NCBI GenBank assembly: GCA_951406725.2
Contig: OX597822.1
Coordinates: forward strand, 13,764,001 to 13,828,000
Length of the DNA stretch: 64,000 nucleotides
Origin: Octopus vulgaris
Lineage: Eukaryota
Direction: 5' to 3'
A program made the translations under genes and the position numbers. The notes beneath the pieces were generated by a model. That model did not search any database, was not told where the DNA came from, and saw only the letters and a list, made by a program, of their open reading frames with translations. This document shows, in pieces, positions 1,723 through 62,689 of the stretch. Position 1 is the stretch's first letter; every line of letters starts with the position of its first letter.

Positions 1723-1908
1723 AGTGAAAATTTACAACAGAACAAAGCACGAAGACGGGTGTGTAAACAACAAACAGATGTATTAGTTTAACGCTAGGGA
1801 AGTGAGAAAGTCTTTTGCGTTTCGAGCCTACGCTCTTCGACAGAAAGGAACACAGAAATAAACAGGGAGAGAAAACAGAAAAAGGTTCAGTGGCTAGCAA
1901 TCTATCAT
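1723..1908 (-). mobile_element. Non-coding element between (TA)n tracts with a hammerhead-like motif (Penelope-like pLTR fragment)
   Basis: Flanked by (TA)n on both sides; homologous to 14012-14205; minus strand cttt-CTGTCGA-a-GAGC-gtag-GCTC-GAAAC-gca-aaag at 1812-1847. Confidence 0.6.
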
Positions 1909-3815
1909 ATATATATATATATATATATATATATATATATATATATATACACACACATAACTTTTCTTTTTTTTTTCAATCAACTAAATGAACACATTAT
2001 CCCACAAAAGAGTGTCAAAGTGTACACAAATCTGGAATATATAAATGACGTCATGTATTGTGAATCATGGATAAAAAGCCCTAAGAGGATTAGCGATAGT
2101 AAAGATTGATCTGGAATAGTCAGTAATGACCTCAATGTAGTAATCACATCTATCGAATGACCCCATAATATAACTTTCTAGATTTGCTATAGAAAACGAA
2201 TTGGTATGTGTGTATGAGTGCTAGACAAGAAGTTGACAGAAAGCTGACTAAAAGGGACAGAAACCAAGATATGAATAAGGTTTATAGAATGTCTATTGGA
2301 AGCAACATTTTTTAAAGCAATGTATAATATGGGAATATACCATTATTAAATGAAGCCATCAACCACTGCCGACTCAAGGTTGTGTGAATCTGTTAGAAAT
2401 GTTGAGTGTAGCCAAATATGGCATTAGTCAAACAAAATCTTATTGCTTCACGTTTGTCTTCCTCTGTAAAATGGTTTGTTAGGTGTGCAACGGAAGTTCG
2501 CGGTGCTCCTGTTCGTGTTTCGAACATTCTGAAAAAAAAGACCCCTTACCTTATATTTTCATGATATTTTAAAATAAAAATTATGGTTAACAAGAGATGA
2601 TTTGGAAATAAACTAAACGGATCAACTTCCTCGACAGAAGATTTGTTGGCTTGTGCTAAATATAATTTAAAAATTACTATAAAAGATGTTTTTAACCAGA
2701 AAAAAAAAAATCAAGCCGATATAGAGTGCATAAGGTCCAGTTTGATAACTGAATCTCCGTTTACTAAAAGTGAAGAACGAAAAAATTCTAAATATTAAAA
2801 CTAGAAAAAATAGGCGGGAAAAAGGCAACATAGGGGAAGGGAACCACGTATTTGAAAATTCACCGAAGCCAGTTGCATTATATAAACTTATTGACGTGTT
2901 TACATTTGCTGAAAGTTTCCGATTTAGCATTGAAATATTATCCTAATGTGAGTGAGGTTTTCAGATTATTTTGTAAGTAATGTAAAGGTCACGCATTTAC
3001 ATAAGGCCTGTATCTTTCATTAACCATACAGATCTTATTATGTTTAGCTTTGTCATTCATCCTTTCGGTGCCGATGAAAAAGTACTGATCCATGGCGCCA
3101 AATTAGCGAACCAACAGAACCTCGAAGCGGATGCCTTCCGGTGTTTCTTCATTTTGTTTGCTGTTCAATTTCAAATCCCCTCACTGCTTACATTTGCTGG
3201 CAAATTCACTCGGTTTCCCACCACCATCTGACCGTTCGGATGTCTTCAGCAGATTGATTCTACTCTGTTGCGAGCATTCGGATCAGAACTCCGACTATTC
3301 TCAAAAATCCTGTAAATGGATCATGAGTGTCTCCTTTCCTTCCGACTATAAGATTTAAAAAAACGTTGTATTGCATTACGTTTCTCAATGACGTGGGAGG
3401 GAAGGGTGCGAACTACAAGTTGGTGCCAAGTTTTGAGTTTGCTGATTTAACCTCGGCTTCGTATATAACGGCCTCTGCATTTCAGGATCCATTCAGCGGA
3501 AAGTAACGATTGCGACTGCATGTTGGGGAGGCATATGTGACTCAAACAGCTTAATGTGAGTAGTGCAAGAGAAACTAATTTTATAGTTATGTCCACTGAA
3601 AAGTTTGACACTATCTGTGACCAGGGGGAAAGTGCTGGTCTATCAAACTCAAAGCATTTTGCTGGAAAACACGTGGAGCCAGATTCCGACGCACACGTAC
3701 ATATACATATATAAATAAATACACCCACAAAACACACACACAAGATTGCCGTCCCGTGACGTAATGTAAATAAGTATGTGGTATGTGGTATGTATATATA
3801 TATATATATATACTT

Positions 3816-4047
3816 AAGGCGGCGAGCTGGCAGAAACGCTAGCGCGCCGGGCGAAATGCTTAGTGGTATTTCGTCTGTCGTTGTGTTCTGAGTTCAAATT
3901 CCGCCGAGGTCGACTTTGCCTTTCATCCTTTCTGGGTCGATAAATAAAGTACCAGTTTCGCACTGGGGTCTATGTAATCGACTTAATCCCTTAGTCTGTC
4001 CTTGTTTGTCCCCTCTGTGTTTAGCACCTTGTGGGTAGTAAAGAAAT
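3816..4047 (+). mobile_element. SINE family A
   Basis: tRNA-like head with B-box gagttcaaattcc; tail ttagcaccttgtgggtagtaaagaaa. Confidence 0.9.
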
Positions 4048-4594
4048 TTATATATATATATATATACATGAACCCACACTAACCTAAACAAACACCAATT
4101 ATCATCTAAAATTGATTGTTTGTATATTTTTGTCTTATCAGTTAATTAGTTTATTTAGCTGACTCCACACTGTTTTCTTTCTTTCCTTCCATTTTCTATA
4201 ATTTTTTTAACATCCCAGTTATGAACTATTCTCATCCGATGTTATTTTATCTTCTGGTTGTTGTTGTTGTTGTTGTTCTTGTTGTTGTTGTCGTTCTTGT
4301 AGTCATTGTTCTTTGGTACAAAATCCTTGAAAACTGAGTACATACGAACTGAATCAGCAGTTGGTTGTGCAGACGTTTCTGACATTACAGCCTGGTGGAT
4401 TATTATGTGATTGCATTATGAAGATGCTTGCATGTGATTGCAGTGAAATTGGTTGCGAACTACTATTTAATGGCTCACGCATTAGTTTCTTCTCGTCTAG
4501 ATAATACACACACACACACATATATATGTGAAACTTAGAGTAACAGGTTTTGTTGAATTTTCTGCTGCTTTTAAATAAAGTATATATATATATA

Positions 4595-4978
4595 TCTCTC
4601 TATATATAAACGGCAGTTTGTCTGTGCGTGTTTCTGTGTGTCTGTTTGCTTGTACCCTCACCCTGACCACGGCTTTCAACCGATTCTGATGAAACTTGAC
4701 ACACACATAGCCCAATGTCATAATTCAAAACTAACGCAGCGAAAATTTTGAAAAGTTCCCCCAGTTCTGAAAAGAATCGATAAATTCCACATAGGGTCGA
4801 GAATCAGAAACATGAACCACAAACTGTCTAGGGGACGCAACTCCACCTTTTTTAAATCTCAAAAAAAATTTACCATCATTTTTTCCCATCTTTTTGCTAT
4901 TTTTTGGCTATAACTCTCTAAAAATGCTTTATAGTTATTTCCCTTACAAACCTGAGCAACGCCGGGCGATACCGCTAG
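4595..4978 (+). mobile_element. Non-autonomous Helitron
   Basis: Starts TC after A, ends CTAG before T, GC-rich subterminal hairpin cctgagcaacgccggg; 3' end shared with 25097-25489 and 26393-26769. Confidence 0.75.
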
Positions 4979-61479: not shown

Positions 61480-61700
61480 GTGTGTATATGTTTGTGTCTG
61501 TGTTTGTCCTCCTAGCATTGCTTGACAATCGATGCTGGTGTGTTTACGTCCCCGTCACTTAGCGGTTCGGCCAAATAGACCAATAGAATAAGTACTGGGC
61601 TTACAAAGAATAAGTCCCGGGTCGATCTGCTCGACTAAAAGGCGGTGCTCCAGCATGGCCGCAGTCAAATGACTGAAACAAGTAAAAGAGTAAAGAGAGT
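61480..61700 (+). mobile_element. SINE family B 3' half
   Basis: gcttgacaatcgatgctgg...ggcggtgctccagcatggccgcagtcaaatgactgaaacaag. Confidence 0.88.
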
Positions 61701-62262
61701 ATTTACATATACATATATGCATGCACGCGTGCGCACACATAGACGCACATCTACGTTTGTTTATGTATATTAAACAGAAGTACACCAAGCAGCGTTGTCT
61801 GAAATATGGGTTATAAAACTTCATTAAGCACGCTCGCAGAAACTAGGGGATGGGAGAGCCTTACGCCGGGGCAGTCCTTCTAAGTTTCAAGTGTAGACGA
61901 ACGTGGGAAATATAATTGTAAGCACTGAAGTTTAATTCAAAGGGCCAGCCTTGTAACATTCTGTGTCACGTGTGTCTGTGGAGTACTCAACCACTTGCTT
62001 GTTAATTTTACGAGTGGGCTGTTCCGTTTATTTATTGGATCAACTGGATCTCTCGTCGTCACAATTGGTGGACAGCCACACTTACACATACACATACACA
62101 TGTACATATAGAATTAAATACCGTATTATAAAGCTATGAATTCTTTTCTCGCCTGCAAATCTGAACGTACCTGTTCAACGCACACTACCACACGCATATA
62201 CATACACATATATGTGTGAGTGTGTGTGTGTGTGTGTGTAGTTATTTCAAAATGTAACCACA

Positions 62263-62440
62263 TGTGAATCGTTGGCGATTTTCTTCCTCCGTTTTCCCTT
62301 CTTTGGGACTTTACACTATTTCCGAAGAAGAGCGTCTACTTGAAACGTTAAACCATCTTTCCTTTCCTGAGAGTCTACAAATACCTTACATGTACCACGT
62401 CCTCGCGTTGTTGTTTTTTGTGTTCCTTTTTGGATTTGTT
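62263..62440 (+). mobile_element. Copy of the 30022-30200 element with a degenerate hammerhead motif
   Basis: atcgttggcgattttct...ccgaagaagagcgtctacttGAAACGTTaaa. Confidence 0.55.
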
Positions 62441-62571
62441 ACACACACACACACACACACATATATATATATATATATATATATATATATATATATATAT
62501 ATGTAGGTCCCGGGTTGATTCGGGGTTAACCACAGTAAATAAGGTACTCAATACATAGCAGAGTAAAATTA

Positions 62572-62689
62572 ATTTATTATATAGAAGGAGCTTTACAGGA
62601 CTAGAACTGTTTCATTCAAGAGAAATCTTCAAGATTTCTCTTGAATGAAACAGTTCTAGTCCTGTAGAAGCTCCTTCTATATAATAAAT
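62572..62689. repeat. Spacer-less palindrome (centre 62630) in a (TA)n-flanked element starting at about 62505
   Basis: Arms are reverse complements except for a 1-nt indel. Confidence 0.93.

Follow-up and report, generated by a model that had tools for sequence, protein, structure and literature searches.

Predicted hammerhead motifs at short ends of Penelope-like elements in (TA)n tracts of the Octopus vulgaris genome

The hammerhead ribozymes described from Penelope-like elements (PLEs), to judge by the accessible parts of the reports on them, have a palindromic or zero-loop helix III and an extra base after A9, and they occur as thousands of single motifs from truncated elements and as inverted pairs 100-700 bp apart; recorded variants include a U3:A8 pair and, in oyster, an A15.2:U16.2 pair with U17. 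These features recur in inserts dispersed over a 64-kb stretch of the Octopus vulgaris genome (contig OX597822.1; G000:C9:13764001-13828000), the whole of which we call the window, in an assembly of 2.8 Gb in 227 contigs. An octopus family of the Hydra clade (Hydra-1_Obim) with a (TA)n target and a hammerhead has already been tabulated (Craig et al. 2021, PMC8557442), and the clade as presented in the accessible text of that paper resembles our elements in its DKT, RWK-like, CxCx5C and CxxC/CxH motifs, C-terminal GIY-YIG domain, (TA)n target, canonical hammerhead, inverted 5'-truncated copy and optional tail. The excerpted account of the Poseidon PLE of Anolis (Frangieh et al. 2024, PMC11167929) agrees with them in two internal starts of the reverse transcriptase (RT) that delimit a tail, the cutting of both strands in AT-rich DNA, a hammerhead upstream of the start sites and an uncut RNA template. 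That of the Penelope elements of Adineta vaga (PMC3846280) agrees in head-to-head inverted pseudo-long terminal repeats (pLTRs) with junction palindromes, solo pLTRs, a TATA box before an initiator-like word and, as in our family F, an Asn-rich insert between RT and endonuclease. Animal non-LTR retrozymes (PMC7229834; bioRxiv 10.64898/2026.07.22.740005) are likewise non-coding, with a type-I hammerhead and a tie to PLEs, but in the portions of these reports consulted they are tandem units of 170-400 nt with circular RNA, whereas the inserts of the window are single or inverted ends of coding elements.

An earlier sequence-only reading of the window had listed about a dozen such inserts, and all 13 are present where it placed them or a few bases away. 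They belong to ten dispersed repeat families (A-J) and are real, non-random and of a known kind, namely PLE pLTR ends with minimal hammerheads in (TA)n tracts. We consider it probable that they are short pLTR end copies of several PLE families, at least five of them protein-coding, which carry a predicted type-I hammerhead and were likely written into (TA)n tracts by the RT/GIY-YIG protein of the parent element. As this class is known, and known from an octopus, the main result is an ordinary one; what could still interest specialists are core variants that have become fixed and the traces of the insertion route in the genome.

Coding parents of the short copies

The genome was searched with the ten inserts as queries, 40 candidates being scored in each search (first-look candidates: A 1,473; B 1,675; C 1,032; D 2,475; E 1,088; F 1,090; G 1,335; H 73; I 409; J 1,098), and was sampled as 80 stretches of 10 kb (800 kb) at round coordinates on contigs C1-C28. 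Five families (A, C, D, F and I) continue upstream in longer copies into GIY-YIG frames or frames for RT plus GIY-YIG, which marks their short copies as pLTR ends of protein-coding PLEs. In family F (L199 and L200) a pLTR is followed by an RT frame with RW(R), DKT and YRDD motifs, an Asn-rich insert, a CxCx5C linker and a GIY-YIG-type end, with a CxxC motif as well; beyond the frames a long 3' untranslated region (UTR), interrupted by an L1-like insertion, leads to a second pLTR. A related RT and endonuclease with DKT and CxCx5C lies ~3 kb upstream of the hammerhead in family I (L359). Motifs and homologs place RT and GIY-YIG in one unit in F (L199) and I (L359); for A, C and D the endonuclease end only was seen, in D with CxxC and CxH ~0.4 kb upstream (L071, L077-L079), in C ~0.95 kb upstream (L365, L364; the linker is not preserved in these copies) and in A as a GIY-YIG end with a CX4CxxC linker in longer copies, from which the RT was not recovered. 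By motif match to the marks in PMC8557442, F, I and D appear to be of Hydra type, and family A may be Neptune/Nematis-like, these being clades marked by CX2-5CxxC before GIY-YIG. The Hydra elements described in the accessible text of that paper differ in being shorter than 3 kb, against units of ~6-8 kb with 3' UTRs near 3 kb in F and I, in tails of 30-40 nt, against 60-70 nt in C and I, and in the hammerhead listed for octopus, from which those found here depart.

The pLTRs of the coding parents of A, C, D, F and I are nearly identical to the short copies, and copies extend upstream by 0-1,500 nt from fixed 3' ends. Two pLTRs, variable 5' truncation and an inverted truncated copy are seen at L199+L200, L198, L201, L358 and L359; PLEs have been described with this pattern, in which 5' ends vary and 3' ends are fixed, truncated copies stand inverted, and a tail is found on one side only. 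The RT part of family F has 216 homologs, one of them 97% identical and labelled Octopus sinensis, and Atlas look-alikes of one homolog carry GIY-YIG and RVT_1; longer homologs of this part were not found. A tandem trio of family F matches on contig C16 (3.06-kb period) has no frame and holds only 3' UTR and microsatellite. The sequence-only reading had proposed a PLE origin with minimal type-I hammerheads, palindromic helix III and inverted pLTR copies, and was right in these points; the linkage to PLE frames that it named as a check was recovered in A, C, D, F and I and not in B, E, G, H or J.

Several results weigh against this assignment. Pfam detected no RT family in the F frames or in five homologs, and GIY-YIG in the F frames and homologs only below its cut-off (E 0.011-0.022), while the element proteins had no solved-structure match in the PDB; with Pfam and PDB silent on the RT, motifs and look-alikes are the basis of the assignment to PLEs. 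Nor was an uninterrupted frame encountered: frameshifts break that of F in L199 and that of I in L359. For B, E, G, H and J no frame was found upstream in flanks of 1.5 kb in 20-30 copies, nor in 10 kb in two or three copies each for B, E and G, the flanks of J extending to only ~350 nt.

The absence of an upstream frame in these five families is also what an alternative would predict, in which some families (B, E, G and J would be the likeliest, or the short copies of C and I) are truly non-autonomous and mobilised in trans by PLE proteins, their short copies being transcribed, perhaps with the (TA)n tract into which they landed as a TATA box. Copy numbers in the tens of thousands point the same way (arms of A ~60,000, C ~49,000 and B ~45,000, by rough scaling of 13-17 matches in 800 kb), and so do, from the parts of the sources at hand, the mobilisation of a host gene in trans by Adineta pLTRs (PMC3846280) and the relation of vertebrate retrozymes to pLTRs (bioRxiv 10.64898/2026.07.22.740005). 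We nevertheless regard this alternative as unlikely: A, C, D, F and I have coding parents nearly identical in the pLTR, B, E and G also have longer, 5'-extended copies of variable length, and the short copies reach no further than the RT start sites, while the anole RT is described as needing ~55-60 nt beyond such sites (PMC11167929, as excerpted). Fold-back junctions moreover vary from copy to copy, and the fold-backs were therefore not amplified as units. The proposal that these are non-autonomous or retrozyme-like families thus finds no support, five of them joining PLE frames, the short copies having fixed 3' ends and 5' ends that are scattered or confined to a start site, and the inserts of the window containing no head-to-tail hammerhead array, the form that defines animal retrozymes; B, E, G, H and J may still be non-autonomous.

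Hammerhead motifs and their core variants

The Rfam hammerhead search suggested for the window returned no gathering-level match, and no hammerhead stood among the 150 listed of 436 weak matches; the weak matches are microsatellites that fit microRNA models. For the 3' half-motif (GAAAC, a perfect palindrome, GTH) the window has 17 occurrences, a number that none of 200 shuffles reaches (7.1 ± 2.8); several of the 17 sit in an unrelated repeat resembling a short interspersed element (SINE). A strict full descriptor gave two motifs in the window against 0.52 ± 0.75 (maximum 3) in the shuffles, which is not significant. Because the window alone does not reach significance for the full motif, the genome was searched with the ten inserts, and significance comes from the families. 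The family-blind descriptor found 47 motifs in the 800-kb sample, a single tandem array contributing 7, where three shuffles gave 1, 0 and 0. Once positions 3 and 8 were freed, 3:8 was a Watson-Crick pair in 25 of 27 sample matches (C-G 13, U-A 7, G-C 5). Scaled from 40-47 matches in the sample, hammerhead-like motifs number ~140,000-165,000 genome-wide.

Aligned copies restore a full type-I hammerhead with palindromic helix III in nine of the ten families (A, B, C, D, E, F, G, I and J), and compensatory helix changes distinguish family G from the subfamily represented at 17480. The insert at 16777 (family H) gives no support for the layout first proposed, CTGANGA-stem-GAAAC-palindrome-GTH, in standard form, and that at 7020, with a G3:C8 core and an A15.2:U16.2 pair, has another layout. 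No first core half is present in the 20-copy majority line of family H, which conserves the 3' half and AATAAA; an exact one lies far upstream in only one of the 20 copies, the only copy that a hammerhead with an extremely extended helix II would fit. In this family a long hairpin, found also in L208 and L219, precedes the 3' half, and the family may have a long-helix or rearranged motif. The AATAAA said to lie just downstream of several inserts does so in three families (E, H and I) and not in the remaining seven.

The canonical C3, U4, A6 and G8 are present in D, F, G, I and J, and absent from C, A and many copies of B and E. Among the first 100 of 4,857 exact pattern matches to family C (control 0), G3 is found in 100 and C8 in 97; the G3:C8 core occurs in two subfamilies that differ in loop II, also with an A15.2:U16.2 pair, and no change at the core positions appeared at a 2% threshold in short-read contigs of four other runs, these being assembled contigs of unrecorded library type that drop rare variants. 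All 14 sample copies of family A have U6, position 7 taking any of the four bases, while C4 is found in 8 of 13 sample copies of family B and is common in E; one B subfamily has G17. The U10.1:U11.1 of family I is a known variant, as are natural U3:A8, U4C (from a viroid) and A6C (low activity in Mg, preference for Mn). The engineered C3G/G8C change was partly active in the anole PLE hammerhead (PMC11167929, as excerpted), whereas here G3:C8 is natural and fixed. No natural G3:C8 or U6 core was found in the portions of the hammerhead literature consulted, including tables of known families, a survey that did not extend to Lunse et al. 2017, which may include them; among the known rows compared neither is listed, and the very long helix II of D, F, G and J also sets our motifs apart. 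C-G, U-A and G-C at position 3:8 thus occur within one genome, and fixed natural variants (G3:C8, U6, C4) in tens of thousands of copies are ready substrates for tests of core tolerance.

Further families with a U3:A8 core were noticed at L258, L263, L265, L273, L286 and L305, the last having A15.2:U16.2 and U17 in common with family C. L246 (G000:C1:20000001-20010000), in contrast to the inserts of the window, is a retrozyme-like array: a unit of 359 bp is repeated in tandem and gives seven canonical type-I hammerheads with a 6-bp helix I and a 4-bp helix II, of which five share a strand and two lie on the opposite one.

Predicted folding is less favourable to a functional motif: helix III is absent from the minimum-energy fold of every monomer, and family I prefers a rival hairpin over the cut site to the hammerhead. 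The gain on dimer formation ranges from -3 to -12 kcal/mol and is smallest for C and B. Slow cutting that depends on a dimer or on protein, as known from reports on this class, would be consistent with these predictions, which do not prove it.

Ends of the copies and the route of insertion

The ends were compared in position-ordered sets of 30 arms each for families C and I. In family C, 29 of 30 arms start at or after one base (+1) that lies 24 nt before the core, and in family I 24 of 30, scored by eye, start at or after a base 7 nt before it; long copies of both have a TATA-like box ~30 nt before +1, which corresponds to L365:8862 in C and to L359:8135 in I. G precedes +1 in 13 of the 16 C arms that start exactly there, where the template has C (p 8e-7). 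Loose ends before +1 were present in 44 and 43 short-read contigs of two runs for family C, with G in the majority, and in 18 contigs for family I. There are two alternative 3' ends, with and without a tail (tailed in 17/30 arms of I and 14/30 of C), and family E also has two ends. All 11 fold-backs among the position-ordered family I copies are head to head and consist, by eye, of one tailed and one tail-less arm. In the published excerpts on the anole PLE, two internal RT starts delimit the tail in vitro, both strands are nicked and extended, and uncut RNA is the main substrate (PMC11167929); an untemplated G has been described as the mark of a copied cap for LINE-1 and SVA (PMC4859970).

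Taken together, the start sites, the extra G, the tail pairing and the anole data suggest two cDNAs made from opposite nicks on a capped, uncut sense RNA. In C and I, two young families, RNA polymerase II would start ~30 nt behind the TATA-like box and 7-24 nt before the hammerhead core, and the protein would nick both strands of the (TA)n tract. Two sites within the capped, uncut RNA, separated by 60-70 nt, would then serve as starts of reverse transcription. Each cDNA would be only 60-200 nt long and run to the cap, which would account for the extra G, and the two cDNA ends would be joined head to head into a fold-back with one tailed and one tail-less arm. Short copies, without the TATA-like box and the sequence downstream of the start sites, would likely be dead on arrival. 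The scheme differs from the work on Poseidon (PMC11167929) in that the cap-like G and the tail pairing are read from genomic copies rather than from a reaction, and from the preference for antisense self-priming expressed in the accessible text on Adineta vaga (PMC3846280) in that our data point to a capped sense RNA as template. The consulted parts of both papers present it as an open question whether the RNA copied by PLEs is sense or antisense and cut or uncut, and how head-to-head copies originate; the extra G, the fixed start and the pairing of tailed with tail-less ends make the copying route countable in thousands of young copies.

The same elements might form fold-backs by another route, either self-priming on an antisense template, which the Adineta authors proposed (in the text consulted) for head-to-head repeats with junction palindromes (PMC3846280) and which the 4-nt palindrome at the centre of many family I junctions would suit, or use of a spliced RNA with its 3' splice site at +1, for which a pyrimidine tract and a branch-point-like word before both +1 sites could be taken as evidence. 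Self-priming should yield identical arms, yet the tail differs in all 11 fold-backs; a spliced RNA should leave an exon before +1, where only one shared base (G) is found; and a TATA-like box at the expected distance in both C and I speaks against either route. We therefore hold these routes to be improbable, if slightly less so than truly non-autonomous families, and retain copying of a capped sense RNA as the preferred account.

That account has its own difficulties. The arms were chosen by exact patterns (4,686 matches genome-wide for family I), so that the C and I sets favour young copies. For five of the 13 extra Gs the opposite arm is a possible source, which leaves 8 of 11 when counted by hand; most +1 junctions of family I are masked by the 4-nt palindrome, and its fold-back L331/L332 reaches 10-14 nt upstream of +1. 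A resemblance to 3' splice sites is seen in the sequences that immediately precede +1, and the Penelope element of D. virilis has a TATA-less promoter within it and an intron that ends at helix I. Adineta pLTRs, according to the portion of the report seen here, sufficed for integration in trans (PMC3846280), and short copies might accordingly move again.

The ribozyme is under selection in the parent elements and probably cuts slowly, as a dimer or with protein help. What the cut might do can be put forward only tentatively. As helix I of family I begins at +1, cutting would remove the cap. We think it possible, though on balance doubtful, that a slow hammerhead in the first 50-60 nt of a capped mRNA lets uncut RNA be copied while cutting removes the cap and switches the fate of the RNA, and that G3:C8 (~49,000 copies) and U6 (~60,000) were selected for low speed or for tuning to a metal, as variants new to the natural record. 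A link between ribozyme cutting and cap-independent translation has been drawn for RNA viruses (PMC13725137, as excerpted), an analogy only.

Around the cut site itself, lesions within 7 nt of the predicted cut were present in 6 of the first 100 matches of family I, and in many fold-backs one arm has 1-2 bases missing just 3' of it. The lesions recur in three subfamilies and on either arm (window 62505-62632; L331, L342, L344, L349); neither the 11,342 short-read contigs of run X15 nor three further runs list them at a 1% threshold, and families C and F show none. With the lesions unlisted in short-read contigs and absent from C and F, assembly error in hairpins is as likely a cause as an RT jumping across cut RNA, and they were not used as evidence of the latter; depth steps in sequencing runs guessed to be of RNA disagreed between runs and were also set aside. 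Such lesions could otherwise recommend the idea that the inserts are monomeric retrozyme remains, derived from hammerhead-cut RNA that was circularised and reverse-transcribed by rolling circle; so could the type-I hammerheads and PLE mobilisation common to animal retrozymes in the accessible text of PMC7229834, and the true retrozyme-like array at L246. Yet 94 of the 100 family I copies cross the cut site intact, the lesions go unlisted in short-read contigs as just described, short head-to-tail arrays are missing from the window inserts, and copies start at a fixed base upstream of the core rather than at the cut site and are not circularly permuted. This makes an origin as retrozyme remains very improbable beside the reading as pLTR ends of PLEs.

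Target sites, density and the inserts of the window

The association with TA microsatellites proposed earlier is confirmed. Of 35 3'-complete family copies, 21 have (TA)n directly at the 3' end, compared with 17 of 145 copies of three SINE-like control repeats whose 3' ends are approximate (Fisher p 1e-8), and the background at random genome places is 5.9%. In the position-ordered sets, (TA)n is found at the ends of 30 of 30 family I arms and 21 of 30 family C arms. The high density claimed for the window, in contrast, is not found: the family-blind descriptor counts 2 intact motifs against 3.8 expected per 64 kb, and the 17 family matches by BLAST against 4.4 expected are circular because the references came from the window.

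The inserts are collected in Table 1. As had been noted, some are complete and others partial or degenerate. The hammerhead is intact in only three arms (35868 and both arms of 7020), near-intact at 30080 and 62322, degenerate at 1723, 14012, 24805 and 11082, and its core is cut off at 4530, 17221, 17480, 35178-35713 and 62505. The inverted duplications were verified as fold-backs at 7020, 11082, 35178-35713 and 62505. The family C right arm has a helix I of 7 bp, a helix II of 5 bp and a predicted cut after U17 near 7214. The majority of 18 family J copies is a complete canonical hammerhead with a long helix II, and family F is very young, 17 of the 41 matches listed being 100% identical.

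Table 1. Hammerhead-related inserts in the window (window positions)
Feature	Position	Strand	Remarks
Family A pLTR end	1724..1906	-	Flanked by two (TA)n tracts; U6 core 1837-1843; position 16.1 mutated here
Family E, 3' half only	4527..4582	+	GAAA, palindrome, helix I 3' strand, AATAAA, then (TA)n; 92-96% to complete copies
Family C, fold-back left arm	7020..7152	-	Intact G3:C8 hammerhead, core starts 7142
Family C, fold-back right arm	7165..7301	+	Intact G3:C8 hammerhead, core 7180-7186
Family D, left arm	11085..11212	-	Broken off inside core
Family D, right arm	11235..11372	+	First core half canonical (11250); G12 altered in this copy; helix II long
Family A, older degenerate copy	14013..14198	-	76% to 1723 copy
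Family H	16777..16975	+	Imperfect hairpin, conserved 3' hammerhead half (16932), AATAAA
Family J	17182..17290	-	Broken off in helix II
G-related subfamily	17476..17662	+	Ends before core; 98.6% identical copy in L201 has complete canonical hammerhead
Family E	24808..24890	-	Core at 24875; helix III partly deleted; C4 in many relatives
Family B	30022..30200	+	Core 30080; zero-loop helix III; G17 (subfamily trait); then (TA)n
Family G arm	35178-35242	-	First core half absent
Family G arm	35265-35418	+	First core half absent
Family F downstream-sequence piece	35418-35524	-	Between family G arms
Family G arm	35560-35713	-	First core half absent
Family F pLTR end	35756..36164	+	Intact canonical hammerhead, core 35868, long helix II, GAAA at 35960
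Family B, older copy	62264..62440	+	C4 core (62322)
Family I, tailed fold-back arm	62505..62632	-	Broken off at core; 1 base missing just 3' of predicted cut site
Family I, tail-less arm	62628..62689	+	Ends in (TA)n

Another piece of family F downstream sequence, absent from the earlier list, lies around a long (TA)n at 27724-28261 and is 80-84% identical to L198/L199. Elsewhere in the genome the hammerhead families insert beside or into each other's (TA)n flanks (L198, L122, L131, L201, L360, L371), the neighbour pairs seen being C beside F, G beside F, and I beside F and A; 35178-36165 in the window may be compared.

The window is AT-rich and crowded with microsatellites (148 tandem-repeat rows), which swamped the repeat-finder output and left it unusable, and no clear host gene was found among its 75 frames of at least 110 aa. 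The three SINE-like control repeats occupy 38 places in it (17, 16 and 5 matches) and are scaled from the sample to ~130,000-440,000 copies each genome-wide; one of them holds a GAAAC-GT word that inflates motif counts. A 1.36-kb tandem duplication at 98% identity (57318-58682 and 58675-60020) was also noted, as was a C-terminal fragment of an L1-like reverse transcriptase frame (56553-57377, minus strand) that by eye resembles the insertion in L199/L200. An (AT)n tract of 1.5 kb (766 units) occupies 18761-20285.

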